From the NCBI GenBank assembly GCA_902792815.1, contig CADBAY010000005.1:44504-108503 (forward strand): DNA of 64,000 nt. Direction: 5' to 3'. How positions within the stretch are numbered: the stretch's first letter is position 1; each line of letters begins with the position of its first letter. The notes beneath the pieces are model-generated. The model worked only from the letters and a program-made list of their open reading frames with translations. It did not search any database and had not been told where the DNA came from. Source of the DNA: an uncultured Bacteroidia bacterium. Its GTDB lineage: Bacteria > Bacteroidota > Bacteroidia > Bacteroidales > UBA932. Both the position numbers and the translations under genes were made by a program. Below are positions 469 through 16,813 of this stretch, in pieces.

Positions 469-2577
469 CTATTTGAAAACATAGCTTATACTGTACAGAT
501 TCTGCGAATCGCCTCCGTAGAGCAGGTCCCACTCTCCGTGGAGCGGTTCCATCCGTCCGCTCTCTTCGTTCCACCAGGTAAACGTGTCTTCGGTCAGCGG
601 TATTTTAACGTCAATGCTTTCTCCGGCCTTGATGCTTACCTTATTGAATCCCCTTAAGCTGAGGCGCGGGCCTGCAGGATCATCAGTCCTGCGGACATAC
701 AGCTGGACTGTTTCTGATGCGTCGCACCCGCCCGTGTTGGTGACAGGAATTATAATATGTCCGCGCCTTACCGAGGCCTTGCCGTATTCAAAATAGGTAT
801 AGCTCAGGCCGAATCCGAAGGGGAAGAGGGGCTTTCCGCCGAAAAAGCGGTATGTCCGCCCTTGCATGTCGTAATTCTCATAGTCGGGAAGGTCGGCGAT
901 GCTGCGGTAGAAAGTAACGGGCAGTTTGCCGGAGGGGCATACGTCGCCAAACAGTACATCGGCAATTGCGGTACCGCCTTCCTGCCCGGGATACCAGGCC
1001 TGAAGGATGGCCGCGCAGCTTTGTGTCTCCCTCTCAAGACCGACTGCGCTGCCGGAGAAATTGACCAGGATCACAGTCTTGCCGGCGCTATGGAGGGCTT
1101 CCAGCAGCTCCCTCTGAACGGCAGGCAACTCTATGTCGGTGCGGTCTCCGCCCTTGAAGCCGGGGAGCTCCACCTCCATCTGCTCGCCTTCGAGAGCGGG
1201 GGAGAGGCCGCCTGCAAATATCACTGTATCAATCCCTTCGAGCTGCTCCAGCAGATTCGCCGGAATAACCTTCCCGGCAACGTGCTGGCAGCCTTGGATG
1301 TAAGTAAGGGATGGAATCCTTTGCAGCAAAGCGTCTTTTAGCGTGACGGTAGAGCGCGGAATGCCGTTGTAGTTGCCCCACTGCATGGCGGCATTGTCGG
1401 CGTTGGGGCCGAGGAGCGCGATGCGGGAACACTTCCCGAGCGGGAGGACTTCGTTTTTGTTCTGGAGAAGTACCAGCGATTCGTGCGCCATCTTCAGCGA
1501 CAGGGCCCTATGTGAGTCGCTTTCAATTATAGCGGTGTCCAGTTTGCTCCAGGGGTCTTTGGCATCAAGTTCTCCAAGGCGGATCCGCTCGCAGAGTACC
1601 CGCTCCAGGCTTCTGTCCACGGTGGCCTCGTCAAGTAATCCTGCACTTACTGCCTCGGGGATGTGGCGGTAGGAGTCGCCGCATTCAAGGTCAACTCCGT
1701 TGTTCAGGGCCGCCGCTACGGCATGGGCGGCGTCGGGACTGTAGCCGTGACGGCCTTGGACAAAAAAGTCGTGAACGGCCCAGCAGTCCGATACCACCAG
1801 CCCGCTGAAGCCCCACTCGCCCCGCAGGATGCTGTTCACCAGATAGTCGCTGGCTCCGCACGGGTGGCCTCTGAAGCGGTTGTAGGCAATCATCACTTCT
1901 TTGACTTCGGCTTTGGTAACAAGTTCTTTGAATGCGGGCAGATATGTTTCGCGGAGATCTCTCTCCGAGGGGTTTACATCGAATTCATGCCTGTTCCATT
2001 CAGGCCCTGAGTGCACTGCAAAGTGCTTGGCGCAAGCGTGGGCTTTGAGCACAGGGGCGTCGGAAGGACCTTGCAGTCCGCGCACTACGGCCGATCCCAT
2101 CATGGCGGTCAGGTAGGGATCCTCGCCATAGGTTTCCATGCCGCGGCCCCAGCGAGGGTCACGGAAGATATTGATATTGGGAGTCCAGAATGTAAGTCCC
2201 TGATAATTACCCACGAAGCCTTGTTCCCGCGCCTGGCGGTTCTTGACGCGTGCCTCGTCGCTTACCACCGTGAATACTTCTTCCAGCAGCGGGACGTTGA
2301 ACGATGCCGCCATCCCTATGGGCATTGGAAAAACGGTGGCGCTGCCGTTGCGCGCTACCCCGTGAAGCGCCTCGTTCCACCAGTTGTACGCCGGAATACC
2401 CAGGGAGTCGATGGGTGCGCTGCCGTGCATCAGCAGCGAAGCCTTCTGCTCAATGTTCAGATGATCAATTATTTGCCTCGCTCTCTCCAGCGCGGCCTCT
2501 TTGCGCTGGATGCCTGAGCATGAGGTCAGGGCCAAAATGACACTGACCGCAAGTGCTGTTGACCGGATTGATTTCAT
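469..2577 (-). CDS. GH3 beta-glucosidase/beta-xylosidase, secreted lipoprotein
   Basis: WTPNINIFRDPRWGRGMETYGEDP, CAKHFAVH and VSDCWA (nucleophile) motifs, plus a C-terminal Fn3-like region. Start moved to MKSIRS at 2577 (lipobox LTSC; promoter at 2596-2603). Confidence 0.92.
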   Translation of the reverse strand: MKSIRSTALAVSVILALTSCSGIQRKEAALERARQIIDHLNIEQKASLLMHGSAPIDSLGIPAYNWWNEALHGVARNGSATVFPMPIGMAASFNVPLLEEVFTVVSDEARVKNRQAREQGFVGNYQGLTFWTPNINIFRDPRWGRGMETYGEDPYLTAMMGSAVVRGLQGPSDAPVLKAHACAKHFAVHSGPEWNRHEFDVNPSERDLRETYLPAFKELVTKAEVKEVMIAYNRFRGHPCGASDYLVNSILRGEWGFSGLVVSDCWAVHDFFVQGRHGYSPDAAHAVAAALNNGVDLECGDSYRHIPEAVSAGLLDEATVDRSLERVLCERIRLGELDAKDPWSKLDTAIIESDSHRALSLKMAHESLVLLQNKNEVLPLGKCSRIALLGPNADNAAMQWGNYNGIPRSTVTLKDALLQRIPSLTYIQGCQHVAGKVIPANLLEQLEGIDTVIFAGGLSPALEGEQMEVELPGFKGGDRTDIELPAVQRELLEALHSAGKTVILVNFSGSAVGLERETQSCAAILQAWYPGQEGGTAIADVLFGDVCPSGKLPVTFYRSIADLPDYENYDMQGRTYRFFGGKPLFPFGFGLSYTYFEYGKASVRRGHIIIPVTNTGGCDASETVQLYVRRTDDPAGPRLSLRGFNKVSIKAGESIDVKIPLTEDTFTWWNEESGRMEPLHGEWDLLYGGDSQNLYSISYVFK

Positions 2578-2595
2578 ATTCTGAATTAAGATTAT

Positions 2596-2603
2596 CAAAG
2601 TTA
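2596..2603 (-). promoter_or_regulatory. -7 promoter element (TAacTTTG) for GH3
   Basis: Exact consensus on the minus strand above ATG 2577; divergent from the tRNA promoter. Confidence 0.6.
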
Positions 2604-2621
2604 ACAAAAAGCCAAAAAAGA

Positions 2622-2653
2622 TTTGCAAGATATCAGAAAAAGTTATACATTTG
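2622..2653 (+). promoter_or_regulatory. Bacteroidetes -33/-7 promoter of the tRNA
   Basis: TTTG at 2622-2625 and TAcaTTTG at 2646-2653, 20 nt apart, 10 nt before the tRNA. Confidence 0.75.
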
Positions 2654-2663
2654 CGGTCCAATT

Positions 2664-2736
2664 CTGGATGTGGCGCAGTTGGTAGCGCACCTGGTTAGGG
2701 ACCAGGAGGTCGCTGGTTCAAGTCCAGTCATCCAGA
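2664..2736 (+). tRNA. tRNA-Pro, anticodon AGG (2697-2699); CCA not encoded
   Basis: Full cloverleaf folded by hand: acceptor CTGGATG/CATCCAG with A73, D stem GCGC/GCGC, anticodon stem CCTGG/CCAGG with loop TTAGGGA, T arm GCTGG-TTCAAGT-CCAGT. Pro identity elements C1-G72, A73, G35, G36 and G37 are present. Confidence 0.93.
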
Positions 2737-2746
2737 CAATGGCTTT

Positions 2747-2784
2747 ACAGGCACTTGCGGAAACGCAGGTGCTTGTTCTTTTTT
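2747..2784 (+). terminator. Intrinsic terminator after the tRNA
   Basis: ACAGGCACTTGCG-GAAA-CGCAGGTGCTTGT stem with a GNRA loop, followed by TCTTTTTT. Confidence 0.8.
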
Positions 2785-2837
2785 GTGCTCCCCGCATTAA
2801 TCACTGAACTTTTTTATAGTTTGACAAGATATTTTAT

Positions 2838-2868: not shown

Positions 2869-5800
2869 ATGTCTATCTATAACGGGGTATTCACCAAACT
2901 CCTGACGCTTGTTGTAATATTAGTGTCATTATCCGCTCCTACCTTGCAGGCCCAGAACACCCGCCAGGTAAAGGGAACTGTATATGACGAGACAGGGGAG
3001 CCCTTCCCTGGAGTAATCGTTATGAGCCGTAAGCATAAACTCGCCGCCACTACCGATATAGACGGTAAGTTCATCTTGTCGGGAGTTCCTGCAGATGCTG
3101 TACTTTCGGTGGAGATAATGAGTTACAAGACTCAGGAGATTCGTGTAGCCGATATTAAAAAAGATCTGAAAATCTATCTTGAGCCGGACAGCCAGGTTCT
3201 GGAAGAGTCGGTGGTTACCGGTATTTTTACGCGTAAGAAAGACAGTTTCACCGGCTCGGTACAGTCCATGACAAGCGAGGATATCAAGAGGGTTTCCAAC
3301 AGCAATGTGGTTGAGTCACTCAAAAACCTCGACCCTTCGCTGCTTGTTTTGGACAACCTTGAAGCGGGTTCCAACCCCAATGCCATGGCCTCGATGCAGA
3401 TCCGCGGCGCATCCACGCTGGCCGCCGAGACCTCCAACCTCAAGAGCAACTTCCTGGCCAAAGCCAACCAGCCTCTCTTCATCCTTGACGGTTTTGAAAC
3501 AACTCTGGAGAAGGTGACCGATATGGATATGAACCGTGTCCAGAGCATAACTATCCTTAAAGACGCTTCCGCCAAGGCAATCTACGGCTCGAAGGGTGCC
3601 AACGGCGTCATCGTCATCGAGACCAAGGCGCTCACCAACGACAAGAGCCGTGTCACCTACAACGGAAGTCTCTCTATCGAGGCTCCGGACCTTACGAGTT
3701 ACAATCTGTGCAACTCCCTCGAGAAACTGGATGTGGAAAGGCGCGAGGGCTACTATCAGAACGGCGATTCCTTCGAGACCGTGGCCCGGCAGGCCCTATA
3801 CAACGAAAGGCTTAAGAAGGCCCTGGAAGGCCAGGATACTTACTGGCTCTCCAAACCTCTGCGGCTTGGAATCGGGCAGAAACACTCCGTGAGTATCGAA
3901 CTTGGTTCCAAGGAACTGAGGGCCCTGGCTACTTTCTCTTACAACGACACCCAGGGGGCAATGAAAGGCTCTTTCCGTGACGTGATCTCCGGCAATGTGA
4001 ACGTGGCATACAGGCGCGGCGGATGGACTTTCCGTAACATCATGGGCATCTCGCACATGAACAGCTCCGAGTCTCCTTGGGGCAACTTCAACGAGTATGC
4101 GGTCCTGAATCCATACCTCACCCCCTACGATGAGGAAGGAAATCTCAAGAAAGTGCTTCAGATAAAGGATTATACGTACGGTGGGGTATCCACTTTCTTC
4201 GGACTTGTAATGAACCCTATGTACAACGCTACGATAGGCACTACCGACACAAGCCAGTATCTTGCCATATCCGACAATTTCTACGCCGAGTACCAGTTCC
4301 TCAAATTCCTGCGCCTGGTAGCCCGTTTCGGTATTGATTCCCAGAAGACCAGGACCGATGAGTTCAAGCCGGGGCAGCATACCGACTTCTACGACACCAA
4401 CGAAATCCTGCGGCGAGGCAGCTACGAGCAGTCGAACGGAAGCTATACCACCTACTCGGGCGACGTGTCGGCGCAGCTCAACCACAATATTGCCGGCAAG
4501 CACGACCTCTTCGCCACCCTTGACTGGAGCATCTCCCAGACCAACTACGAGGAGATAGTCAACTACACGGAAGGCTTCCCGAACAGCAACATGAAGAGCA
4601 TCACCTTCGCCCGCCAGTATGCCACGGATATGGTGCCCACGGGCAGTGACGGCCTGAACAGGAACCTCGGAGCCCTTGCCACTGCGGGCTACAGCTATGA
4701 CAACCGTTATATGGCGGACGCAACCATCAAGGGCAGCGCTTCTTCCGTTTTCGGCACCAAAAACCACTGGGGCCTATTCTGGAGCGCCGGCCTTGCCTGG
4801 AACATCCACAACGAGCGCTGGATGAAGGACAAGGTGTCCTGGATCACACAGCTGAAACTCAGGGCCAGCCTTGGGTCTTCCGGCAACCAGAACTACACCA
4901 GCAATGTGGCCCTGCCAGTATATACCTACTACTCTTCCGCATACTACAGCGGTTTCACCGGAGCTGCGTTGAACAATATGGCCAATCCCGAGTTGGGCTG
5001 GGAGGAAAAAATGGACTACAACGTGGGAATCGATTTCCGCACCAGGTCGCTTAACGTAGTCCTGGATGCGTATATCGCCGATACCCGGAACCTTGTATTC
5101 TCCAGGACCATACTGCCGTCCACCGGATTCTTGTCCACCAACGACAACCTCGGCAAGGTCCGAAACAAGGGTCTGGAGGCCAGCGTGAGCTGGACCTTCT
5201 ACCGCCGGGGGGCGTCGTACATCAGCCTGTTCAGCAAAACCGCGATTAACGACAACAGGGTGCTGGAAATCTCCGACGTCCTCAAGTCCTACAATGAGCA
5301 GCAGCAGGCGCGTGCGAAGGAAACCGGAATGGCCGATCCCGTAATCCAATACTACGACGGTATGCCCCTGCACTCGATCTGGGTGGTACGCTCACTCGGA
5401 ATCAACTCGGCCGATGGCTATGAGATCTTCCTGGACAGGAACGGCAACATCACCACTCAATGGAGTCCTTCCAACCTATATAATGCGGGATCGTCCGACC
5501 CGCTGTTCAACGGTAACTTCGGCATCAACGGAGAAGTCAAAGGCTTCGGATTCAGCCTCACTGCCACTTTCTATGGCGGAGGCTATCTCTACAACAATAC
5601 TCTCCTGAACAAGGTCGAGAACACCACTCTCGAAAACAATGTGGACAGGAGGGTATTCAGCGGCCGCTGGGCCAAGGCCGGAGACGTGGCGCCGTTCAAA
5701 GCGCAGAGCGGGATAGGGGGTGCCGTTACCAAGGCTACCAGCCGCTTCGTCCAGAAGAACGACGTGCTCAACCTTTCCTCCGCCACCCTGTACTATGAGT

Positions 5801-5955
5801 TCCCGCTGCGAGTGATAAGTGGCCTGGGGCTCAGCCGCCTGCGGCTCAGCCTGTACACGAACGACATCTTCACATTCTCTTCGATAGATATCGAAAGGGG
5901 TACGTCCTACCCCTACGCCAGAAAGTTCTCCTTTAGTGTAAATGCCTCATTCTGA
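2869..5955 (+). CDS. SusC/RagA-family TonB-dependent outer membrane transporter
   Basis: Signal peptide, carboxypeptidase-regulatory-like N-domain, plug motif (ILKDASAKAIYGSKGANGVIVIETK), NPELGWEEK, C-terminal Phe; 1028 aa. Confidence 0.95.
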   Translation: MSIYNGVFTKLLTLVVILVSLSAPTLQAQNTRQVKGTVYDETGEPFPGVIVMSRKHKLAATTDIDGKFILSGVPADAVLSVEIMSYKTQEIRVADIKKDLKIYLEPDSQVLEESVVTGIFTRKKDSFTGSVQSMTSEDIKRVSNSNVVESLKNLDPSLLVLDNLEAGSNPNAMASMQIRGASTLAAETSNLKSNFLAKANQPLFILDGFETTLEKVTDMDMNRVQSITILKDASAKAIYGSKGANGVIVIETKALTNDKSRVTYNGSLSIEAPDLTSYNLCNSLEKLDVERREGYYQNGDSFETVARQALYNERLKKALEGQDTYWLSKPLRLGIGQKHSVSIELGSKELRALATFSYNDTQGAMKGSFRDVISGNVNVAYRRGGWTFRNIMGISHMNSSESPWGNFNEYAVLNPYLTPYDEEGNLKKVLQIKDYTYGGVSTFFGLVMNPMYNATIGTTDTSQYLAISDNFYAEYQFLKFLRLVARFGIDSQKTRTDEFKPGQHTDFYDTNEILRRGSYEQSNGSYTTYSGDVSAQLNHNIAGKHDLFATLDWSISQTNYEEIVNYTEGFPNSNMKSITFARQYATDMVPTGSDGLNRNLGALATAGYSYDNRYMADATIKGSASSVFGTKNHWGLFWSAGLAWNIHNERWMKDKVSWITQLKLRASLGSSGNQNYTSNVALPVYTYYSSAYYSGFTGAALNNMANPELGWEEKMDYNVGIDFRTRSLNVVLDAYIADTRNLVFSRTILPSTGFLSTNDNLGKVRNKGLEASVSWTFYRRGASYISLFSKTAINDNRVLEISDVLKSYNEQQQARAKETGMADPVIQYYDGMPLHSIWVVRSLGINSADGYEIFLDRNGNITTQWSPSNLYNAGSSDPLFNGNFGINGEVKGFGFSLTATFYGGGYLYNNTLLNKVENTTLENNVDRRVFSGRWAKAGDVAPFKAQSGIGGAVTKATSRFVQKNDVLNLSSATLYYEFPLRVISGLGLSRLRLSLYTNDIFTFSSIDIERGTSYPYARKFSFSVNASF

Positions 5956-5962
5956 TTGTATT

Positions 5963-7483
5963 ATGACAAAGATAACAAAGCTACTGGCGTATTTGCTGAT
6001 CGCCCTTGGAAGCCTTCAGTCATGCAATAAATGGCTGGAAGCCACTTCCTCCACTCAGGTGTCGGACATCACCCTCTTCTCGTCCAGAAGCGGATTCCAG
6101 GACGCACTCTGCGGGGTGTATATCAGTATGGGCGACGAGTCCGAATATGGCGAGGCGTGGACCTGGTATGTCAACGATTTGGCATACGGCCCTTATGCCC
6201 AGCAGTCCAGCCCAATCTTCACGGCCATACAGAACCACGACTGGGACAACTATTCCGTGGCCACCATCACGGAAAGGATGTGGAGAGTGGGATATTTTTC
6301 GATAGCAAATGCCAACAAGGTCCTCTATGAGCTTGAGGCCAAGCCCGATATCGTGTCCGACCGGATAGAGCGGAACTTGATGAAGGGCGAGCTTCTGGGC
6401 CTGCGCGCATACATCCATTTCGACCTTATGCGTATGTTCGGCCTCGCCCAGCTGGGGGAAGACGACTACGAAAAATACACAGTGCCATACGTAACTACCT
6501 ACGATAAGGAGCCTGCTCCGCAGAGGACCTACCGGGAGACATTGACCCTTCTGGAGAAAGACCTTGACGAGGCAATCACTCTTCTCGAAGAAGATCCGGT
6601 GCGTGGCAACGCTTCCGCGGAGTTCATGGCCAATGCCAATGCAGACGGCTTCTGGGATGCCAGGGACAAGAGGATGAATTATTTCGCCGCCAAGGCGCTC
6701 AAGGCAAGGGTCCTCCTGTTCCGCGGCGAACTGGATGCGGCCGCAGCCGCTGCCCGTGGGGTGATAGATGAAGCCAATGCCGCAGGAGCCTTCAAATGGG
6801 TTGACGCCGAGGCCATGACCAAAGCCACCTCCAATGATGTCGTGGACTGGACCTTCTCTTCCGAGCAGCTTTTCGCGCTGGAGGTCAGCAATCTGCAGTC
6901 GATGACAGACCTATATATCTTCAACGCTCTCGGCTCCGGGTCGTCCTCGATACTTGTGGATAGGAACGTTTGTGGCGTGGCACCATACAATTTGGCAAGC
7001 ATCGCCTCTTCCGAGGATATCAGGGGCCCTGCCTTGATGCTGAAATTCTTCGCAAGCCAGTATCGCCCTTACAAGTATTACAATAACTCTTCATACTATT
7101 CGGGCTACAGGAACCGCGTGCCGATGATCAAAATTTCCGAAATGTATATGATTATCGCGGAAGTGGCGGCGGAAAAGCAAGACCAGGAAACCATGCTCCA
7201 GGCATTGACCGAAGTCAGAAGCCACCGTGGAATTCAGGATCCCTCTCCTTTTCTCGACGATCCGAACTTCGCCAGCCCCAATGCCTTTCTATCCGGAGTG
7301 CTTATGGAATATGTAAGGGAATTCCTGGGGGAAAGCGTCGGGTACTTTGCTGCCAGACGTATCCCCGCAAAGGCGCGGTTTTGGATAAATATCGATAACG
7401 ACTGGCGTTTCAGGATGCAATCGCTCACTCCCTATCCTTATCCCACAGATGAATTGTCATACGGAAGACATCAAGACTTATGA
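5963..7483 (+). CDS. SusD/RagB-family lipoprotein
   Basis: Lipobox LQSC; GELLGLRAYIHFDLMRMFG, AAKALKARVLL, IKISEMYMIIAE and EYVREFLGE motifs; directly after SusC. Start moved to MTKITK. Confidence 0.93.
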   Translation: MTKITKLLAYLLIALGSLQSCNKWLEATSSTQVSDITLFSSRSGFQDALCGVYISMGDESEYGEAWTWYVNDLAYGPYAQQSSPIFTAIQNHDWDNYSVATITERMWRVGYFSIANANKVLYELEAKPDIVSDRIERNLMKGELLGLRAYIHFDLMRMFGLAQLGEDDYEKYTVPYVTTYDKEPAPQRTYRETLTLLEKDLDEAITLLEEDPVRGNASAEFMANANADGFWDARDKRMNYFAAKALKARVLLFRGELDAAAAAARGVIDEANAAGAFKWVDAEAMTKATSNDVVDWTFSSEQLFALEVSNLQSMTDLYIFNALGSGSSSILVDRNVCGVAPYNLASIASSEDIRGPALMLKFFASQYRPYKYYNNSSYYSGYRNRVPMIKISEMYMIIAEVAAEKQDQETMLQALTEVRSHRGIQDPSPFLDDPNFASPNAFLSGVLMEYVREFLGESVGYFAARRIPAKARFWINIDNDWRFRMQSLTPYPYPTDELSYGRHQDL

Positions 7484-8268
7484 AACGGTTTTTACTTTTA
7501 AGTGTCGCAACGCTATTGTGCTGCCTGGCCTGCAAGAAAAGCGAGATTCAGACTTTCAAGGTGGAAGACTGTTCGGTTTCGTTCAACGGAATAGAGAATT
7601 CATTCTCTTTAAGGGGATGGACGGAAGAGTTCAAGGACCTTCACGTTCCCGTGAAAGTGTTGGGCATTCCCGTCGATTATGACCGGGAGATTACGCTGGA
7701 CATCCGTGACTCCATCGCCACCGCTGCAGATTACCAGGTGCTCTCTTCCGTGGTAAAAGCCGGCGAACTCAAAACAAATATAATAGTGAGGGCAAAAGCT
7801 CTGCCGGATGACGTGGAGCAGAAGGTGATAATAATGAGCATAGTGCCCAATGATTATTTCCGTGTCGGCGAGCCTAATTACCAGAAGGCGATAGTAAAAT
7901 GGACCAACTCCTACGCCAGGCCCGTACCGGACGTGTGGAAGAACTGGTACCTTTACATAAGTACTGGCTACAGCAAGGCTCTTCATAAAATCCTTGTGGC
8001 CGAATACGGTGACGAGATCGACTTCTGTGTCAGGCAAAAGTCGGCAGTCACTCCCGAGAACGGACTGATATATAAGGACCCTACCTGGTGGAGCGCCCTC
8101 AACAAGAGGGTGAGGGAAATAGTCCGTGACCACGACCTGTTGCATCCTGATGACCCGTATATGCACAGCGATGATTATGAAGACTATCCCAATTCCTCGA
8201 CCCCTGTAGGGCAGGGTAGGAAGCCCGCAGTGATTCCCACCATCTATTCAACTCTAGTGTCCATATGA
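7480..8268 (+). CDS. DUF4843-like lipoprotein
   Basis: Lipobox CLAC; ATGA overlap with SusD; GYSKALH-type motif and position typical of this locus type. Confidence 0.65.
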   Translation: MKRFLLLSVATLLCCLACKKSEIQTFKVEDCSVSFNGIENSFSLRGWTEEFKDLHVPVKVLGIPVDYDREITLDIRDSIATAADYQVLSSVVKAGELKTNIIVRAKALPDDVEQKVIIMSIVPNDYFRVGEPNYQKAIVKWTNSYARPVPDVWKNWYLYISTGYSKALHKILVAEYGDEIDFCVRQKSAVTPENGLIYKDPTWWSALNKRVREIVRDHDLLHPDDPYMHSDDYEDYPNSSTPVGQGRKPAVIPTIYSTLVSI

Positions 8269-9803
8269 TCAAGCGATTTGCAATATTGGCCATTCCCCTT
8301 GCGCTTATGCTCTCGTGTTATAAAGACCTTAGCACGGAGGCGACCAGGGAGCTCCCCGGAATAGAAATCACCGGGGTGCCGGATACTCTTGACGTCCTGT
8401 TCGGAGATGAGATTCAGCTACACGCCGTCGCCACTCTGGGAGGGGAAGAGTATGACGGCTTTGAATATGAATGGGCCATTGATTTCAAGCCCGGAGTCAG
8501 CAAAGACAGGATGAGCCTGTCGGAAACGCAGGATGTGTCCTACAGGGTAGCCAACAGCCCCAATGCCTCCCCCTATTGCCTGTCATTTACGGCTACCGAC
8601 ACCCAAAGCGGCCTGTCCAAGACCGTCAGTTGCTTCGTGTTCGTGAATTCTTCTTTGGGAGAAGGGGTGTTGGTTGCCCATACCCGTGACGGCGGAATGA
8701 CCAGCGATTTCGACCTTCTGGCCAATAAATTTGTAACTTACGGCTATACGAGCGACGCCCCCAGATACACCAGAAACATTTTCGAACTGGCCAACGGGCA
8801 GCCTATGCAGGGACGGGTGAACACTTTGATTTCGTCCGTGCGTACCGACGGAACCGTATATAACGAGACCCTCGTCCTTGTGGGCACCGATGAGCATCTG
8901 TTCGCGCTCGACCCCCTGACCTTCACGGTGGCCAAGCAGGACGGGGCCCTGTTCAACGGTTTCAAAGAATCCACCTTCGAAGTCCACAACCTGATCAACT
9001 ACGGCCAGATAATGACCGCAGCCCAGATCAACGGCAAACTGTGGCTCAATATCTGCCATACCAACAACACCTTCAACATAGCCGGCTATAGCGGCATCCC
9101 TTCCGATGTGTTCACTCCGACCAATGTCGGCTACTCGTATGCGGTTCAGCAGAGCGATGTGGCATTTTTCAACGAAGCTGAAGGCAAATTCTATTATATG
9201 CACGCTCAGTTCTCCGGCTATGCCAGCTTTGCGCAGGTGACCGATCCTATTGGAGCCGATCTGGCGGGAGGCAAGTGTCTCTGGGCCGGTGCCGGCAGGG
9301 ACGCGCGTTGCGCATTCCTGATCGAGGACGCGGGCGGCAAGCATCACATTGTAAATATCCACCCCAGCATTAAGGAAATGGTTCATTACTCCCTGGAAGC
9401 CTCCCAGTGGCTGCCGGACGCTAAGTACTTTGCTTTCTGCGACAATGCCGACATAGTGTTTATGGCTACGGACAGCAAGGTCGCGTCCGTTACCATCATG
9501 GGCGGCAGTCCGGTTTACCGTGAAATCAACTGGAAACCCGATACTGGCGGGGAGATAATAACCGGCATTAAATTCTATACCCAGGGATGGTACGGAACCC
9601 ATGGATTCGATTACAATACCTATGATTTCCCTATCGCTACCAACCGGATGCAGATTATGATCTTTACTTACGATGAAGCGTCGGGAGAAGGAAAGATTTA
9701 CCTGCGTCCGTTCAACGTTAGTACCGGTCTGTTTACTTTCAAAGATAACGGAGTGTACGGCGGGTTCGGAAGAATAACGGCCGTAGCAACAACCTTCAAA
9801 TAA
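8265..9803 (+). CDS. PKD-like family lipoprotein
   Basis: Lipobox MLSC then YKDLS; Ig/PKD-like N-terminus (YEWAID); beta-rich C-terminus; ATGA overlap. Confidence 0.7.
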   Translation: MIKRFAILAIPLALMLSCYKDLSTEATRELPGIEITGVPDTLDVLFGDEIQLHAVATLGGEEYDGFEYEWAIDFKPGVSKDRMSLSETQDVSYRVANSPNASPYCLSFTATDTQSGLSKTVSCFVFVNSSLGEGVLVAHTRDGGMTSDFDLLANKFVTYGYTSDAPRYTRNIFELANGQPMQGRVNTLISSVRTDGTVYNETLVLVGTDEHLFALDPLTFTVAKQDGALFNGFKESTFEVHNLINYGQIMTAAQINGKLWLNICHTNNTFNIAGYSGIPSDVFTPTNVGYSYAVQQSDVAFFNEAEGKFYYMHAQFSGYASFAQVTDPIGADLAGGKCLWAGAGRDARCAFLIEDAGGKHHIVNIHPSIKEMVHYSLEASQWLPDAKYFAFCDNADIVFMATDSKVASVTIMGGSPVYREINWKPDTGGEIITGIKFYTQGWYGTHGFDYNTYDFPIATNRMQIMIFTYDEASGEGKIYLRPFNVSTGLFTFKDNGVYGGFGRITAVATTFK

Positions 9804-9805
9804 TT

Positions 9806-12247
9806 ATGAAAACACTCAAAAGATTATTGCTCTTAGCGGCCTTGTGGGCCATTATCTGCCCCGTAAGTCTTGAGGCTAAGGACCTTACGTCCGTCAAGGC
9901 CTCCGTCAAGAAGGGCAAGATACTCCTGGAACTGCCGGATTCCCTTCTGGGCAGGACCTGGGCCATGGCCTCCACGGTCAGGGCAATAAGCGACAGCCGT
10001 CTTGGAACCGTGGGCCTTAAAGATGTAAACGGGCTCAATTTCTACACTTTCGAGAAGGTTGACAGCACCATCAGGCTCAAGGAGGTGTCGTTCGATTTCT
10101 CATCATCCGACGGCAATATACTTAAGGCTCTGTCGGACAGCCATATAGGGGCTACTGTCGAAAAGTTTGACATCAAATCCACAAGCGACGAAGGGCGCTA
10201 TGTGGTAGATGCCACCGGCTTCTTCCTCTCGGACAAAAAAGAGCTCGACCCTACTGAGCATAACCCGCTTGCCCGGGAGACCGTAAAGAAAAGCTACAAA
10301 AAGGACCTTTCCTACATAGCCGGGGCCAAGAGCTTTGACGATAATTTCTCCGTTGCGGTAAGCCGCACCTACACATATGAAGTAAAAAAGAAGGAGACTC
10401 CTCTGACCGTCGAGACCGTAACGTCTTTCCTGCTGCTGCCGGAAGAGATCTATCACCCCAGAATCGCCGACCCCAGAATCAACTTCTTCTTTACCCGAAG
10501 AGCCATGGTGGAGGACCTCAATTCCACGAGCAAGGACGTATGGTTCGTTAACAGGTGGCGCCTGGAGCCCTCCGACACTGCCGCATACAGAAGGGGAGTG
10601 GCGGTTGAGCCCGTGAAGCCGGTCACCTTCTGGATAGACAATAATTTCCCCGAGTGGTGGAAGCCTTATATATTCGATGCCGTCCTGCAGTGGAACGAAG
10701 TGTTCGAGACCATCGGATTCAAGAATGCCATACGGGCATTGCCCTTCCCCGAAGACGATCCCGAGTTCGATCCGGAAAACATTCGCTACAACTGCATACG
10801 CTATGCTCCGGTGTCGGTCCAGAACGCTATGGGCCCCTCCTGGACGGACCCTCGCAGCGGCGAGATTATCAACGCCTCCGTATGGGTGTGCCACGACGTT
10901 ATCAAGCTCCTTAGCGTGTGGATGTTCGTCCAGACCGCACAGGCCGACCCGGCGGTGCGTAGTGCCGACATCCCCAAGGAGGTCCTTGGCGATGCCCTGA
11001 CCTATGTGTTGCGCCACGAGGTGGGGCATACCCTGGGCCTGATGCACAATATGAGTGCGTCCACCTGCTTCTCGATTGAGCAGCTGCGCGACCCTGAATT
11101 CACTCAGGAAAATGGCACGACTGCATCCATCATGGACTATGCCCGCTTCAACTATGTGGCCGAGCCGGGTGACAAGGAGCGCGGCGTCAGGCTCAGTCCT
11201 CCCAAGTTTGGGAAGAATGATTATTGGGCGATACGCTGGGGTTACACTCCGGTTTTCGACGCCTCAAGCTTTGAAGAAGAAACCAAAATCACTGCCGGCT
11301 GGATCACGGACTCGGTGGCAGTGTCTCCGATCTACCGCTACGGCAAGCAGCAGATGGGTATGTTCTTCGACCCCAGGTGCCAGACCGAGGACCTGAGCGA
11401 TGATGTGTTCGCCGCATCTGATGCCGGGGTCCGTAACTTGAAATATATTATGTCCGGATTCTTGGACTGGATTTCCGACGAGAGCGATCCGGATATGAAA
11501 TACCGGACGGAACTGTATCTGGGCATCGTAAACCAGTATCTGCGTTATGCCGGACATCTAATGCATAATATCGAAGGCTTGTACCGCAATGAGACCGTCC
11601 CCGGCGACGGGTTCAAACGCTTTGAAAACGTGCCCCGGGACGTTCAGGAGAGGGCTCTTGACGATGTGTTCAAGATGTATTCCGACCTTGATTGGCTTGA
11701 AGACAAGGCCGTGCTGGGCCGGCTCCCCATAGTCGGATCGCCCGTGGACAACGTGCGCCGCAGCATCGCCCAGAACCTGATGGGCAAGGTGTTCGCCGCC
11801 GGTATGATCGACGGCATCGACACAGAAGAACTGCCGGTCAAGGATCTGATGGACATGCTGTTCGACCGTGTATGGAAACCGACTCTCAAAGGCCGTGCTC
11901 TTACCGACGGAGACAGGCTTTTCCAGCGCGTTTATGTGGAATCGCAGATGAATATGGTAGGCTACAAGAATCCGGCGGATAGCGAAAAGAAGGATGCCTT
12001 CCACGAGCATGACGACCATATCTGCGATATCCTTGATCCGCACTCTCCCATGGGAAGCATCCGCTATGACGAGATCTCCGGCTTCGAGTGGGATCCGCGC
12101 AGTTTCGGCGGCGGCCACATAAGCAGGTCGACCGTTTATGCCGAACTGATGAGAGTCCGCAAGCTGATAGGGAACAAGACCGGAAAAGGTGAGGACAAGG
12201 GGCATTACGCGCTCCTTCGGAGTATAATCGATTACAGCGTGAGATAA
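9806..12247 (+). CDS. Secreted zinc-dependent metalloprotease (DUF5118/DUF5117/DUF4953 Met-zincin type)
   Basis: HEVGHTLGLMHN (HExxHxxGxxH) at 11015-11047, Met-turn ASIMDY, ADPRINFF, GPSWTDPRSGEII; signal peptide. Confidence 0.92.
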   Translation: MKTLKRLLLLAALWAIICPVSLEAKDLTSVKASVKKGKILLELPDSLLGRTWAMASTVRAISDSRLGTVGLKDVNGLNFYTFEKVDSTIRLKEVSFDFSSSDGNILKALSDSHIGATVEKFDIKSTSDEGRYVVDATGFFLSDKKELDPTEHNPLARETVKKSYKKDLSYIAGAKSFDDNFSVAVSRTYTYEVKKKETPLTVETVTSFLLLPEEIYHPRIADPRINFFFTRRAMVEDLNSTSKDVWFVNRWRLEPSDTAAYRRGVAVEPVKPVTFWIDNNFPEWWKPYIFDAVLQWNEVFETIGFKNAIRALPFPEDDPEFDPENIRYNCIRYAPVSVQNAMGPSWTDPRSGEIINASVWVCHDVIKLLSVWMFVQTAQADPAVRSADIPKEVLGDALTYVLRHEVGHTLGLMHNMSASTCFSIEQLRDPEFTQENGTTASIMDYARFNYVAEPGDKERGVRLSPPKFGKNDYWAIRWGYTPVFDASSFEEETKITAGWITDSVAVSPIYRYGKQQMGMFFDPRCQTEDLSDDVFAASDAGVRNLKYIMSGFLDWISDESDPDMKYRTELYLGIVNQYLRYAGHLMHNIEGLYRNETVPGDGFKRFENVPRDVQERALDDVFKMYSDLDWLEDKAVLGRLPIVGSPVDNVRRSIAQNLMGKVFAAGMIDGIDTEELPVKDLMDMLFDRVWKPTLKGRALTDGDRLFQRVYVESQMNMVGYKNPADSEKKDAFHEHDDHICDILDPHSPMGSIRYDEISGFEWDPRSFGGGHISRSTVYAELMRVRKLIGNKTGKGEDKGHYALLRSIIDYSVR

Positions 12248-14637
12248 TGAAAAAGTTGTTTCTGACAATTCTTGCGCTGACCTTTGCTCTTGCGTTGCGT
12301 GGCGCTGACACCTATGAGACTTTTGTTTCCAAGGCCGGAATCAAAAGTGCGGGGGAGTGCATGCGTATCTATAAAGACGGCAGCAAGTATTGGATGGAGT
12401 TTCCTGATTCCCTCATGGGAAGGCGCGTCATTCTGTCTTCGTTCATGCGGAGTTCTTCGGGCTGGACGAGCTGCGGGACGGACATATCCGCCAGGGAAGT
12501 ATTTACCCTGTCCCGTACCGATTCGCTGCTTTTGTTCACCTCGCCTGTAGTGATGCCGGAATCGGACGAGGGCCCGCTCAAGCAAAGTCTGTCGCGCGGC
12601 ACTCTTGCTCCTGTGCGCTACGCCTTCCCCATAAAATACCGCAACGCTGATTCGACCTCCGTGGTGGTAGAGGTCACCAAGCTCTTCGATCCTTCCAACA
12701 AAGATGCCTTCAACCCTGCCAAAGTGCAGATTGACGGCAGCGCGATGGTAAACAAGGCAACGCCCAAGCCGGAGTTCACGCACTTCAAGGAGCTGGTCTC
12801 GTATCCGTCCAGCACCGGCGTGCTCCAGGGAATCACTTTCAAGGTTGCGCCCGAATACGATCTGGGCGGAAATATGCTCCAGGTTATCCAGGAGGAAATA
12901 ATGTCGGTGGATGGTGATGTAGCCACGATGCTGACCCTGGTGCCGGAAAGACCGGTCAAGGTAAGGGCTGCTGACCCGCGTATCGGCACGATTAATTCTT
13001 CCAGGAACGTTTTCTCCAGCGAGAAGGGAATACGCAAGGAAGATATTGTATCGCGTTGGGATATCTCCGGAGGAAAGAAGATAGTAGTCTATGTGGATAC
13101 CCTTTTCTCCGCCGTTCAGCGTGAGGCCGTGGCTAGGGGAATCCTCGTTTGGAACAAGACCTTCGAGGCTGCGGGGCTGGGGAGCGTGATAGAAGTGCGC
13201 CCCTTTGAAAAGGGCGTCGCTGTGGAGAATCCGCTGGTGAGCAAGGTGATGGCCGACGTGCACAGTTCGTCGGGCCGCATTTCCGTTTCGACCCTCTCCG
13301 ATCCGTCCACAGGTTTGGTTTCTGCTTGCAGTCTTACCGTGCCTGCCGGGATTCGCGAGTACTTCCGCCTGGACGGTCTGTTCGGCATTTCCGATGTCGA
13401 TCCCAGATGGCACGAATACGAAATCCCCGAAGATGCTTTCTGCGAGGCCCTCAGCGCCAGGATAATGCAGGCATTTGCCAGAGTCCTCGGGTTGAGCGCC
13501 AATTATGCCGGCTCTTATGCGTATTCTCCCGCCCAGCTGCGGGATCCTGAATTCACGCGCAAGAACGGTATCACCGCTTCTGTGACCGATGACGTGCTTT
13601 TCAATACGCTTGCACGCCCGGGCGACAAGGAAAGAGGCGTGGTGACGGTTATTAATCAGCCCGGGGCTTACGATTATATGGCCGTCGAATGGATCTATTC
13701 CCACCCGGGTGCCGCTTCGGACAAGGCGCTTGCCGACTCCCTTATACGCTCCAAAGCGGGAGATTCTTCTTTCATTTACCTTCCGTATGCCAATTATTCC
13801 TCCGATCCCAGGTGCTGCCGGGACGACCTGGGCAACGATCCGTTCGAGGAGTATGCAACCGCCATCGAAAGATTCAAGTACATCTCGGCCAACGTCCCTG
13901 ACTGGTATGAGAGCACGGTACCGCAGAACACAGGTTTCAGGACCGTGCTGGTGGAGCAGATCCTGCGTCACCATTGCACTGAACACAAGAAACTCGCAAG
14001 GCTGGTCGGTGGCCTGTATATTCAGGATATGTCAGCCGGCCCTAAATACATAGCCGTGGACAAGGAAGAGCAGAAAAAGGCGATGTCTTTATCCATCAAC
14101 GGCTTGAATCAATTGCAATACATCGATTCCAACAAGGAACTGCAGGCCTTCAGCGGTGCTTACAACGACTTCTCCACTCTGATGCGTATCAACGCACTCA
14201 CCCAGAACGCTATGCTCCCCAGGCTGAAATGGAGCGCTGTCGCGACCAAACTCGGAATAGATGAGTATCCTATAGGGGACTTGCTTTCGGACATAACGGA
14301 TGAGGTCACCCGTAACCTGCGTAAAGGATCCGTGCCGGAGGGGGAGGAATTCCTTGTGGAAATCTGGATGGTGCGCGGACTCATGCCCAGTATTCCGGCT
14401 TATGTGCAGAACCTGAAAGAATTCAACCATACTGCCGCGCAGCTCTATGTTCCTCTGCCGCTGACGGAAAGCCTTTACGGGACGGTGCTCGGGAATGCCT
14501 GCATGGCCGAGATGGACAGGCTCGGCGGCATCCTTAAGAAGAGCCTTAGGGCGGCTCACGGCCAATACGACAAGGACAGGATACGATATCTCCTCTCGCA
14601 GTTTGATGGAATGAAGAATACAAATACACAACCATAA
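12247..14637 (+). CDS. Paralogue of the preceding metalloprotease with a degenerate zinc site (pseudoprotease candidate)
   Basis: Shares ADPRIG, QLRDPEFT, PGDKERGV and DPRC..DDLG blocks with 9806-12247, but the zinc motif reads QAFARVLGLSAN. Confidence 0.8.
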   Translation: MKKLFLTILALTFALALRGADTYETFVSKAGIKSAGECMRIYKDGSKYWMEFPDSLMGRRVILSSFMRSSSGWTSCGTDISAREVFTLSRTDSLLLFTSPVVMPESDEGPLKQSLSRGTLAPVRYAFPIKYRNADSTSVVVEVTKLFDPSNKDAFNPAKVQIDGSAMVNKATPKPEFTHFKELVSYPSSTGVLQGITFKVAPEYDLGGNMLQVIQEEIMSVDGDVATMLTLVPERPVKVRAADPRIGTINSSRNVFSSEKGIRKEDIVSRWDISGGKKIVVYVDTLFSAVQREAVARGILVWNKTFEAAGLGSVIEVRPFEKGVAVENPLVSKVMADVHSSSGRISVSTLSDPSTGLVSACSLTVPAGIREYFRLDGLFGISDVDPRWHEYEIPEDAFCEALSARIMQAFARVLGLSANYAGSYAYSPAQLRDPEFTRKNGITASVTDDVLFNTLARPGDKERGVVTVINQPGAYDYMAVEWIYSHPGAASDKALADSLIRSKAGDSSFIYLPYANYSSDPRCCRDDLGNDPFEEYATAIERFKYISANVPDWYESTVPQNTGFRTVLVEQILRHHCTEHKKLARLVGGLYIQDMSAGPKYIAVDKEEQKKAMSLSINGLNQLQYIDSNKELQAFSGAYNDFSTLMRINALTQNAMLPRLKWSAVATKLGIDEYPIGDLLSDITDEVTRNLRKGSVPEGEEFLVEIWMVRGLMPSIPAYVQNLKEFNHTAAQLYVPLPLTESLYGTVLGNACMAEMDRLGGILKKSLRAAHGQYDKDRIRYLLSQFDGMKNTNTQP

Positions 14638-14647
14638 TAATATTTTT

Positions 14648-16813
14648 ATGAAAAAGTTTGTTTTACTGGCAGTTACAGCCCTGGTCGGGCTGACTGTCTT
14701 CTCCTGTAAGCAAAAGGAGATCGAACCCGAAGATGCCCTGAGTATCGCAGGGACTACCATCACGGTAGGGAAGGAAGCCGCAGCTCCGGTTGTGACTTTT
14801 ACTGCTAACAAGGCCTGGAAGGCCGAAAGCGATTCACAGTGGATCGTTCCCGACAAGACTTCCGGTGAGGCCGGCAACGTCTCTCTCAAGATCGCCGTTT
14901 CGGAAAACGACACCTGGGCCGAAAGAAGCGGAAAGGTGACCGTGTCCGTGGGCTCGGTGAAAACCGTTTTCACCATCGTGCAGGGCACAGAATCTATCAT
15001 GGAGTCTGCTTTTGCTTTCAGCATCTCTCCTGAAGCTCAGGATATTGCGATTCCTGTCAAGACCAATCTGCAGTACACCGTAACTCCTGCTGCGGATTCT
15101 CCCTGGATTACCGTGGTTTCAACAAAGGCCGCACCTCAGGAAGGAACTATCAAACTCCGTGTCACTGCCAATACCGAGCTTGCTCCCCGTACCGGCAGCT
15201 TCGTGGTCGCCGCTCCCGGCTATTCCCAGACCTATACCGTGGTCCAGGCCGCATCATGGACTCCGGCTAACAGTGCCGAGGCAATCTATATCGGCAACAG
15301 CCAGTCTATTTACAACAATGAAACCTATTCGGTCAACCTCCATCAGCAGTATGTAGTGAAACTGGCTACGGAAGGCGGAGACAAGGTCACGCTTGTTCTC
15401 AACAAGAAGGGTGAACTAAAAGACAATGTATTCGCATTCTTCTCTGCCGACAAAGTCCCTCAGGGTACTTTCGCAATCGATGCAACGGGCACTAAGGCGG
15501 ACAATACTTTCTCGATCATGTCTTCTACAGGCGAGGAAAAGTACTATACCGGACTCGTTGCCGACGGACGTGAAGTGGCTATATATGATGGCGAGATTGT
15601 AGTGGAAGAAGCCAACGGCAATTACACTGTTACAGCAGTTCTTGTAGATGCCGTCGGTGTCCAGCACAGCTATTCCTATGTAGGTGCTATCCCCATGTCT
15701 ACCGACTTCCGTGGCGGTGCTGCCAAGCTTAAATGGAATAACGCTTGTGATACCTACTTTACCACCAAAGCTAATGGCTGGGACATTTATTTCTATTTGC
15801 CTCGCAAGAACCCCGCTGTCAAAAATGAGGTGGCTTATTGCTCGTTCGATTTCTTCTCGGCTCCAGGGGAAGTGAGTCTCGATGAAATTCCTGCAGGGAC
15901 TTATACTTTTGGAGTTCCGGAAAATGATGCTGCTCTCACATACAAGATGGGTGTCCTGAAGGCTAATCCCGGACTCCTATCCAATGTGGGTATTTCTCTG
16001 TACAACGAGGCCGGCGGTTTTCTCTATACTGAGGTTGAAGCAGTGGGAACCGCGTTGACCATTACTAAGAATGCGGATGGAACCAGCAACTTCAAATATG
16101 CCGCAACCGTCAAGCCATATCAATATATTGATGGTCAGCCGGTTTACAGCGACCCTGTACAGGTGAGCATAGATATTGATGTGCCTGTTGGCAAGGCAAC
16201 TGACGAGACGACACATCCTCATGATGATGGCGATGACGTGTTTGTGTCGCTGGACGGCGCCGCCGGAACTGTATACGTCGGCTACTGGTTTGGCTCGCAT
16301 ATCGGTGTCATGGATGACGGAACTACTATGAAACCCGCCATTCCCGATACTCCTTGCGATGTTTTCTCCTTCGGTTCCAACTCCCATTTCAACGACGCCT
16401 GGACACTGCAAATGTCAGTCATTGCCCATGGTGGATATGTTTATGAGAAGAACTACGCCAACCGTTTTTGCTCTAATCCTGTTCCCGACGGCACTTATAC
16501 ATTCGGAACAGAAGCCAAAATAGGCGCTTTGATTCCCTTGATGAATGGTACAAAACCATGGTGCTATGCCCTGAACAACTATACTGGAACCACCTATTAC
16601 CCTGTGTCCGGATCGGTAACTCTTTCTAAGGGAACTATCTCGGTCGATCTGGTATGTAAGGCTACGGAAAAAGCCCTCACAGGCAAACCTTACAGCCCGG
16701 CAAGCGTGCATTTTACCGGAGGCTCAGCCTTCACTTGTTCCTATCTTCAGGATTATAGTGCAGTGAACCGTGTCAAGAATATCTCCATCAACTCTCCGGT
16801 TCCCGTTGAGTAA
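14648..16813 (+). CDS. BACON-domain surface lipoprotein
   Basis: Lipobox VFSC; two BACON-like repeats (WKAESDSQWI...RSGKVTV; PWITV...RTGSFVV); unassigned beta-rich C-terminus. Confidence 0.75.
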   Translation: MKKFVLLAVTALVGLTVFSCKQKEIEPEDALSIAGTTITVGKEAAAPVVTFTANKAWKAESDSQWIVPDKTSGEAGNVSLKIAVSENDTWAERSGKVTVSVGSVKTVFTIVQGTESIMESAFAFSISPEAQDIAIPVKTNLQYTVTPAADSPWITVVSTKAAPQEGTIKLRVTANTELAPRTGSFVVAAPGYSQTYTVVQAASWTPANSAEAIYIGNSQSIYNNETYSVNLHQQYVVKLATEGGDKVTLVLNKKGELKDNVFAFFSADKVPQGTFAIDATGTKADNTFSIMSSTGEEKYYTGLVADGREVAIYDGEIVVEEANGNYTVTAVLVDAVGVQHSYSYVGAIPMSTDFRGGAAKLKWNNACDTYFTTKANGWDIYFYLPRKNPAVKNEVAYCSFDFFSAPGEVSLDEIPAGTYTFGVPENDAALTYKMGVLKANPGLLSNVGISLYNEAGGFLYTEVEAVGTALTITKNADGTSNFKYAATVKPYQYIDGQPVYSDPVQVSIDIDVPVGKATDETTHPHDDGDDVFVSLDGAAGTVYVGYWFGSHIGVMDDGTTMKPAIPDTPCDVFSFGSNSHFNDAWTLQMSVIAHGGYVYEKNYANRFCSNPVPDGTYTFGTEAKIGALIPLMNGTKPWCYALNNYTGTTYYPVSGSVTLSKGTISVDLVCKATEKALTGKPYSPASVHFTGGSAFTCSYLQDYSAVNRVKNISINSPVPVE

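Follow-up and report, generated by a model that had tools for sequence, protein, structure and literature searches.

The window analysed here, a 64,000-nt stretch of the genome of an uncultured Bacteroidia bacterium (Bacteroidales, UBA932; contig CADBAY010000005.1), contains a single tRNA gene, which encodes a proline tRNA with the anticodon AGG. It is a real, conserved and structurally constrained gene with a promoter and a terminator that are conserved by position, and it is most likely a working decoder of the proline codons CCU and CCC. With a probability of roughly 0.55, we read it as a functional, separately transcribed tRNA-Pro(AGG) of rumen Bacteroidales, which would serve as the main reader of CCU and CCC, an unmodified A34 being the favoured state of the wobble nucleotide. 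The AGG isoacceptor is common to many Bacteroidota, and similar genes arose in Clostridia and Succinivibrio.

An intact and constrained tRNA-Pro gene with A34

The gene was called by ARAGORN as tRNA-Pro with anticodon agg (2664–2737, plus strand). The Rfam model RF00005 spans 2664–2736 from end to end (model positions 1–71 of 71; 67.5 bits, E = 1.5e-12, gathering score 29) and is the only Rfam match in the window. The acceptor stem (C1-G7/C66-G72; CTGGATG and CATCCAG) is followed by TG and a GCGC/GCGC D stem around AGTTGGTA; after a single A, the anticodon stem CCTGG/CCAGG carries the loop T32 T33 A34 G35 G36 G37 A38 (TTAGGGA, A34 being position 2697). The variable loop is AGGTC, and the T stem (GCTGG/CCAGT) encloses TTCAAGT. 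All stem positions are paired, with G49-T65 as the single wobble pair of the whole cloverleaf, and the core nucleotides U8, A14, G18 G19, T54 T55 C56, and A58 are all present, as in the tRNA class in general. A73 is located at 2736, and the bases after it are CAA, that is, CCA is not encoded. The minimum free energy fold of the single sequence lacks the cloverleaf, which is common for tRNAs, yet it is more stable than all of 200 shuffles (z = −2.95).

The A at position 2697 is well supported. The GH3 protein encoded next to the tRNA gene was found on 13 contigs, 10 of which were fetched; these stem from independent European Nucleotide Archive (ENA) metagenome assemblies, all ten have the adjoining tRNA-Pro(agg), and the tRNA is identical in each. 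The runs containing the window sequence are bovine and sheep gut metagenomes. Logan unitigs of five runs cover 2673–2737 or 2685–2737 unbroken and with zero mismatches at depths of 191 (X1), 60 (X5), 150 (X7), 74 (X9), and 500 (X10). The flanks reach a depth of 3–14 in the rumen and gut unitigs, and the stretch containing A34 is 10–36 times deeper in rumen metagenomes, which implies that many other community genomes carry the identical tRNA. Because the unitigs are unbroken, tRNAs that have this body but a different base at position 34 do not occur at detectable depth; no G34, C34, or T34 variant of the exact body breaks the unitigs of the deep rumen metagenomes. The same tRNA was also found in metagenome-assembled genomes (MAGs) of other species (L017, L021, L073, L081, and L109; in L014 the identity holds within the tRNA). 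The read support for A2697 that a preliminary description of this DNA had called for is thus available, and the allele private to one strain that it had considered is ruled out. In run X39, which is of low depth, a contig aligned to window positions 2669–2737 shows a second AGG-type proline tRNA in addition to the exact copy in that sample. Its acceptor stem starts with CGGGG, the A at 2697 is kept, and C replaces A at 2707; more than one AGG variant may thus be present per sample.

Homologues were collected with a pattern scan of one genome per GTDB species, in which the loop TTAGGGA, an RGGTC variable loop, and the T-loop core were fixed. At least 120 loci matched, the true number of species being larger, and the genome comparisons reported here refer to the listed loci in pieces of 8 kb. 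ARAGORN called tRNA-Pro(agg) in 110 of the 120 listed loci, and the gene is therefore present in at least 110 species-representative genomes. After trimming to positions 1–73, the listed loci yielded 70 distinct AGG sequences, which were aligned and scored against the cloverleaf; columns 32–38, 45–48, and parts of the T loop (including A34, G35, G36, and G37) are invariant by construction of the pattern. Standard pairs occupy 99.7% of the stem cells, compared with 77.7% in shuffles and 36–54% when the partner was slid by one to three columns. Two-sided changes affect 16 of the 21 pairs (shuffles 13.0), compensated cells number 324 (shuffles 89), and the covariation score of 0.651 (shuffles 0.214) was reached by none of 500 shuffles. 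The AGG genes are under purifying, tRNA-type constraint.

A73, which was not fixed by the search pattern, is present in all 70 sequences. The first pair is C1-G72 in 62 and U1-A72 in 8 of them, and the second is G2-C71 in 64 and U2-A71 in 5. T2-A71 marks a subgroup of rumen Bacteroidales with the acceptor strand CTGGATG, as opposed to CGGGATG in other Bacteroidota. The intact A34 cloverleaf, the compensated Watson–Crick pair T2-A71, and the maintenance rather than decay of the gene, all read previously from the single sequence, are confirmed by these results.

Two further observations concern the acceptor stem. The U1-A72 sequences belong to Christensenellales/Borkfalkiaceae-type and other Clostridia MAGs (L011, L018, L019, L039, L042, L057, L071, and L126; for example, TGAGGTG...CACCTCA-A-CCA). 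Since C1-G72 belongs to the identity set of the E. coli-type prolyl-tRNA synthetase (ProRS), these lineages may have a ProRS that ignores the acceptor end. In a Lachnospiraceae MAG (L121), the acceptor stem of the window tRNA (CTGGATG/CATCCAG, U2-A71) recurs in an AGG tRNA whose body is otherwise of the Clostridia type, which would reflect either convergence or transfer of the acceptor stem.

The preliminary description had also assigned the gene its own −33/−7 promoter and a terminator, and both were found (Table 1). The −33 and −7 boxes were read by eye, as the sigma-70 promoter scan is not built for Bacteroidetes promoters. The spacing between TTTG and TACATTTG is 20 nt, and the latter box ends 10 nt 5′ of the tRNA. 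Of the 24 Bacteroidales AGG loci, 21 have a TAnnTTTG box in the 70 nt upstream of the tRNA, and in 19 the box is positioned −17 to −27 relative to the tRNA 5′ end. The loci lacking it are L017 and L110, in each of which the gene follows another tRNA, and L109, which has the near match TATATATG. In L073, the orthologous hairpin stays paired via a two-sided change (GCG...CGC to ACG...CGT), and a hairpin with a T-run is located 3′ of the tRNA in most other Bacteroidales AGG loci. Promoter and terminator are hence conserved by position, not by sequence.

Table 1. Elements of the tRNA-Pro(AGG) transcription unit in the window
Feature	Position	Strand	Basis
−33 element TTTG, Bacteroidetes-type promoter (predicted function)	2622..2625	+	Sequence reading; TTTG at the matching place in L073, L021, and L014
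−7 element TACATTTG, fits TAnnTTTG, Bacteroidetes-type promoter	2646..2653	+	Sequence reading, conserved position
tRNA-Pro gene, 73 nt, anticodon AGG, discriminator A73, CCA not encoded	2664..2736	+	ARAGORN, Rfam, covariation
Anticodon A34 G35 G36, then G37 at 2700	2697..2699	+	Sequence reading, ARAGORN
Intrinsic terminator: 13-bp stem (2747–2776), GAAA loop, T-run TCTTTTTTGT	2747..2786	+	Terminator scan

Proline decoding and the state of A34

The proline codons of the window are distributed as CCC 42.5%, CCU 26.8%, CCG 25.0%, and CCA 5.7% (43 long open reading frames (ORFs), 19,109 codons, 54.9% G+C). CCU and CCC together account for 69%, and a tRNA reading both would serve this share of the proline codons. 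Transcription would start from the −33/−7 promoter and stop at the gene's own hairpin terminator. RNase P would trim the 5′ end, and the CCA-adding enzyme, needed because CCA is not encoded, would supply the 3′ end. The identity elements of the E. coli ProRS are G35, G36, A73, and C1-G72. All of them are present in the window tRNA, and through them ProRS is predicted to charge it with proline. TrmD, which forms m1G37, requires G36 followed by G37 in the anticodon loop; with G36 at 2699 and G37 at 2700, methylation of G37 by TrmD is predicted as well. On the ribosome, tRNA-Pro(AGG) would be the main reader of CCU and CCC and would probably do what tRNA-Pro(GGG) does elsewhere among bacteria; an unmodified A34 would pair with U and also with C, the latter as in the engineered tRNA-Pro(AGG) of Salmonella and E. 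coli. A GGG gene was found in none of the 120 listed genome loci (8-kb pieces, not genome-wide), CGG genes being present 19 times and UGG genes four times near AGG. From these loci near the AGG genes, we infer that tRNA-Pro(AGG) may have replaced tRNA-Pro(GGG).

That A34 stays unmodified is favoured over its conversion to inosine and is given about an even chance. The nearest precedents are the engineered tRNA-Pro(AGG) of Salmonella and the E. coli proL G34A mutant, which share the amino acid, the anticodon, and G37 with the window tRNA (for Salmonella, as cited in PMC3711424 and PMC11066159). The proL G34A tRNAs were matured, kept A34 unmodified, and read CCU and CCC (bioRxiv 10.64898/2026.05.15.725136; PMC3711424; PMC11066159). 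The chromosomal E. coli proL G34A tRNA was mature, unmodified, and present at wild-type level (bioRxiv 10.64898/2026.05.15.725136), the Salmonella G34A mutant read CCC with nearly wild-type efficiency (PMC3711424, citing Chen et al. 2002), and an orthogonal AGG tRNA read CCU and CCC about equally without inosine (PMC11066159). Unmodified tRNA-Pro(AGG) can substitute for the GGG tRNA (PMC3711424; PMC11066159; bioRxiv 10.64898/2026.05.15.725136), and other extra bacterial A34 tRNAs were reported to be unmodified (PMC8266599). The engineered tRNAs are laboratory mutants of a GGG-type body, whereas the window gene occurs naturally, is conserved across many species, and belongs by its anticodon arm, which carries U32 and A38, to the UGG/CGG type. 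A natural precedent is the tRNA-Thr(AGU) of Mycoplasma capricolum, in which an unmodified A34 reads several codons of a four-fold box (as cited in PMC3711424 and PMC11066159). M. capricolum has a reduced genome with a minimal tRNA set, in contrast to the AGG hosts, which are free-living gut anaerobes that also have CGG and UGG proline tRNAs.

Contigs containing the tRNA were present in eight rumen or gut metatranscriptome assemblies, all with A at position 34 and without a G variant; these contigs carry flanks, and Logan drops minor variants. In four chicken, pig, or gut runs with the Muribaculaceae-type gene, only A34 contigs with flanking sequence were detected. Some RNA contigs include the 3′ end of an upstream tRNA. 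The flanks indicate an origin of the contigs from precursors or contaminating DNA.

Several observations weigh against a tRNA-Pro(AGG) with unmodified A34 as the main CCU/CCC reader. The RNA contigs, being derived from precursors or DNA, say little about the mature charged tRNA. A GGG gene exists beside CGG and UGG genes in the cultured Bacteroidales species Barnesiella viscericola, and at least one rumen-type sample contains a proline tRNA of the GGG type whose arm is different. The arginine codons of the window (CGC 53.5%, CGU 22.9%, CGG 18.6%, CGA 4.9%) are read by an inosine tRNA, and the proline codons mirror them in that CCC is the commonest and CCA is as rare as CGA (5.7% vs. 4.9%), a profile that fits I34 at least as well. 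Bacteroidales tRNA-Arg(ACG), a natural substrate of the deaminase TadA, already has G37 (PMC6297222), so that the proline loop U33-A34-G35-G36-G37 would depart from this substrate at position 35 alone, a position reported to be solvent-exposed in the TadA–RNA structure (PMC11472039). In mouse caecal tRNA-seq (GSE100263), read counts for A-wobble anticodons were very low (PMC6297222), which fits either editing or low expression.

These points bear on a second reading, possible although less probable, in which TadA deaminates A34 to inosine. The resulting IGG anticodon would read CCU, CCC, and weakly CCA, and a set of IGG, CGG, and UGG without GGG, as in eukaryotes, would parallel the bacterial ICG arginine tRNA. 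It is consistent with the constancy of A34 over 70 sequences whose stems diverged (the pattern required A34), with the uninterrupted deep rumen unitigs described above, and with the proline profile (C > U ~ G >> A), which matches that of the CGN codons of the window. AGG is often found beside CGG, like ACG beside CCG in the case of arginine. TadA activity has been widened to tRNA-Leu(AAG), with the loop U-A-A-G-G37, in Streptococcus and Oenococcus (PMC11472039; PMC13249217), Bacteroidales tRNA-Arg(ICG) has m1G37, leaving position 35 as the sole difference, and A-wobble read groups were very rare in the mouse gut (both PMC6297222). On the other hand, E. coli and Salmonella TadA leave tRNA-Pro(AGG) unmodified (bioRxiv 10.64898/2026.05.15.725136; PMC11066159; PMC3711424), as was reported for the further bacterial A34 tRNAs mentioned above (PMC8266599), and the eight metatranscriptome assemblies show no G34 variant, which is a weak test given the nature of the contigs. 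With G35, the window loop departs from the canonical TadA core U33-A34-C35-G36. The TadA of S. pyogenes accepts A or C at position 35 (UAMG; PMC11472039), G35 not being a reported substrate. A deaminase-motif scan of the window ORFs and of all fetched loci revealed no TadA, the matches being a cytidine-deaminase-like ORF, a dCMP-deaminase-like ORF, and one unrelated chance match. The wider scenario that large gut and rumen clades of Bacteroidota and Clostridia swapped GGG for AGG, which a TadA with relaxed specificity at position 35 would edit to IGG, is tentative. What probability remains beside the unmodified and the inosine state falls to a mixed state or a dispensable gene.

The tRNA-Leu(AAG) of Lactobacillales, converted to IAG (S. 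pyogenes, PMC11472039; Oenococcus oeni and oral streptococci, PMC13249217), is likewise a natural non-arginine A34 tRNA of a four-fold box. It is fixed clade-wide, stands in for the GNN isoacceptor, as Thr-AGU does in its own codon box, and shares the loop U33-A34-N35-G36-G37 with the window tRNA. The two differ in the amino acid and in nucleotide 35 (leucine and A35 vs. proline and G35), and the hosts of tRNA-Leu(AAG) are AT-rich, as opposed to the 54.9% G+C of the window. I34 editing by a co-evolved TadA was experimentally shown for tRNA-Leu(AAG), whereas the window tRNA is known from its gene sequence. Bacterial tRNA-Arg(ACG), edited to ICG by TadA, shares with the window tRNA the location of A34 in a 7-nt loop on a 5-bp stem as well as U33 and G36, and that of Bacteroidales shares G37, too (PMC6297222). 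The G35 of the window tRNA instead of C35 breaks the U-A-C-G core known for TadA recognition.

The cytosolic tRNA-Pro(AGG) of eukaryotes, which ADAT2/3 converts to IGG, has the same anticodon and occurs in the same apparent set of AGG, CGG, and UGG; nothing in the present data points to common descent. The ADAT2/3 heterodimer tolerates many loop sequences, whereas the bacterial TadA homodimer is sequence-specific.

It is improbable that the gene is a redundant, near-neutral extra, namely a mutated UGG- or CGG-type copy that adds little to decoding beside a full set of GGG, CGG, and UGG tRNAs. Such a role would agree with the largely neutral behavior in E. coli of engineered A34 tRNAs from four-fold boxes (bioRxiv 10.64898/2026.05.15.725136), with D and anticodon arms that match a Bacteroidales-like UGG gene except at nucleotide 34, and with Clostridia in which an AGG gene can differ from its CGG neighbor by this nucleotide alone. 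A neutral copy would, however, be expected to decay or to flip at nucleotide 34, neither of which was seen; instead, full pairing with compensatory changes is kept across many species and several phyla, the gene has its own conserved promoter and terminator, and its sequence is identical in the genomes of several species and in many community genomes. An artefact, be it a chimeric contig or a base wrongly sequenced or assembled at 2697, can be dismissed in view of the agreement on the anticodon among ten independent assemblies, the mismatch-free unitigs of five DNA runs at depths of 60–500, and the same sequence in genomes of other species.

Distribution and origin of the AGG genes

The matches listed include approximately 22 from rumen and gut Bacteroidales (including Rikenellaceae, Muribaculaceae, and Candidatus Cryptobacteroides), approximately 13 from Cytophagales, Cyclobacteriaceae, Flavobacteriales, and other Bacteroidota, one from Succinivibrio, and approximately 70 from Bacillota (Lachnospiraceae, Christensenellales, Oscillospiraceae including Faecalibacterium and Ruthenibacterium, Anaerotignum, and Acetatifactor). 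Examples of AGG-bearing genomes are CACZEU01 (RUG12551), JBGUPS01 (Cryptobacteroides), CAAGIG01 (Rikenellaceae), CAZXFF01 (Muribaculaceae), LR994470 (Succinivibrio), and JAIBBC01 (Cyclobacteriaceae). Because the pattern demanded U32 and A38, AGG genes on GGG-type bodies would go unseen. With at least 110 species-representative genomes carrying tRNA-Pro(AGG), the rarity implied in the preliminary description was overstated.

A phage origin was considered and rejected, as only 4 of 10 pattern matches in IMG/VR were real AGG tRNAs (L257:847–923, L259:56–132, L260:115–191, and L256:9159–9233). Three of these four lie no farther than about 850 nt into the fetched stretch, two of them no farther than about 120 nt, and the AGG tRNAs on viral contigs may represent prophage integration sites rather than phage-encoded genes. 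In two further loci (L025:240–320 and L052, minus strand, ~640–690), the 3′ part of a tRNA-Pro(AGG), from about nucleotide 30 to the CCA end, is fused to unrelated sequence. These partial tRNAs look like duplicated attachment-site remnants of an integrating element.

The anticodon loop does not reveal the ancestry of the gene. The loop TTNGGGA had been taken as a match to the CGG isoacceptor; in the fetched loci, it was found in 101 of 102 UGG and in all 36 CGG proline tRNAs and, being common to both, does not discriminate CGG. A metagenome scan for the exact D stem and anticodon arm of the window tRNA with a nucleotide other than A at position 34 gave 122 matches, of which 103 had T, 19 had C, and none had G. 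Origin from a GGG gene by a G-to-A change is not supported on these grounds and because the two GGG genes in the fetched loci have other stems and other loop ends at positions 32/38 (A..G and T..T).

Identity over the whole tRNA is more informative. Variants of the subgroup are 95–96% identical to the window tRNA, the AGG genes of other Bacteroidota 83–85% (best among the matches listed), and Bacteroidales-like UGG genes 84%; the lowest identity, 73%, is that of the CGG genes from related Bacteroidales. Because of this difference between CGG on the one hand and UGG and other AGG genes on the other, the window gene is, as judged from the identities, an inherited AGG isoacceptor and not the product of a recent C-to-A switch. 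Positions 8–45 of the Bacteroidales-like UGG gene equal the A10 variant except for nucleotide 34, and the middle part may have been exchanged with a UGG gene.

The previously proposed C34-to-A switch from a CGG gene, not supported for the lineage of the window, holds for some Clostridia, in which AGG and CGG genes often form tandem pairs of near-twins. In L029, the two are 99% identical and differ only at nucleotide 34; identities between AGG and CGG neighbors are 95% in L045 and 93% in L015 and L097. The Clostridia twins suggest that the anticodon switched recently, after a duplication, or that gene conversion spared it. The AGG gene of L053 shares 91% identity with a UGG gene, and that of Succinivibrio has an acceptor stem in common with the UGG genes of the same genome. 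Taken together, the comparisons indicate that A34 arose, or was copied between paralogues, several times and always on U32/A38 bodies (both nucleotides being required by the pattern). Neighboring AGG and CGG genes with 92–99% identity were observed in L029 (6941–7333), L045, L015, L097, and L106. A Muribaculaceae-type AGG–CGG tandem (L082:2578–2777) recurs in two low-depth samples (X62 and X64); no change is listed inside either tRNA, and about half of the 50-nt spacer is changed.

Genomic neighborhood and implications

Upstream, the tRNA gene is adjoined by the gene of the GH3 glycosidase on the opposite strand (469–2577), and a SusC/SusD locus is located downstream; these neighbors place the host in the Bacteroidales. 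This locus of the polysaccharide-utilization type lies directly 3′ of the tRNA (2869–16813, plus strand) and encodes a SusC-like protein (2869–5955), a SusD-like protein (5942–7483), a DUF4843 protein, a PKD-like protein with a score under the Pfam cut-off, two Met-zincin proteins (DUF4953/DUF5117; 9806–14637), and a BACON-domain protein (14648–16813). With its pair of zincin peptidases, the locus appears to be directed at a protein or glycoprotein rather than at a plain glycan. An ORF of 84 codons with a GTG start (2553–2807, plus strand) from the mechanical ORF list crosses the tRNA and the terminator and is almost certainly not a gene.

With an encoded A34, an intact tRNA, and conservation in relatives, the window gene belongs to the natural bacterial non-arginine A34 tRNAs, which form a rare but established class. 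In a GtRNAdb survey of 4,047 bacteria, 695 genes of this class were counted, the majority being Leu-AAG and Thr-AGU of AT-rich Firmicutes, and every possible ANN anticodon occurs at least sporadically in bacteria (bioRxiv 10.64898/2026.05.15.725136). No paper in the literature searched, a limited collection, describes tRNA-Pro(AGG) as a naturally occurring bacterial isoacceptor that is conserved throughout a clade. What is new is the breadth of the gene in mostly uncultured gut and rumen lineages and its occurrence in a genome that is not AT-rich.

The scarcity of anticodons starting with A in bacteria is an open question. Engineered A34 tRNAs of four-fold boxes are neutral or beneficial in E. 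coli, and their natural absence has been called a paradox (bioRxiv 10.64898/2026.05.15.725136). Leu-AAG and Thr-AGU of AT-rich Firmicutes are the only cases that surveys of cultured genomes highlight. By contrast, rumen and gut Bacteroidales, Cytophagales, Clostridia, and Succinivibrio, in many mostly uncultured lineages, have a fixed and structurally constrained natural tRNA-Pro(AGG). It offers a natural system for asking whether an unmodified A34 can serve as main decoder and whether the range of TadA extends beyond arginine and leucine tRNAs. If A34 were edited to inosine by TadA, this would be the third bacterial I34 tRNA after those for arginine and leucine, and, provided that GGG was replaced, an independent bacterial origin of the eukaryote-style decoding by IGG, CGG, and UGG. 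tRNA-seq pipelines may misassign AGG or IGG reads to GGG, and the answer bears on tRNA-based models of codon usage in gut microbes.

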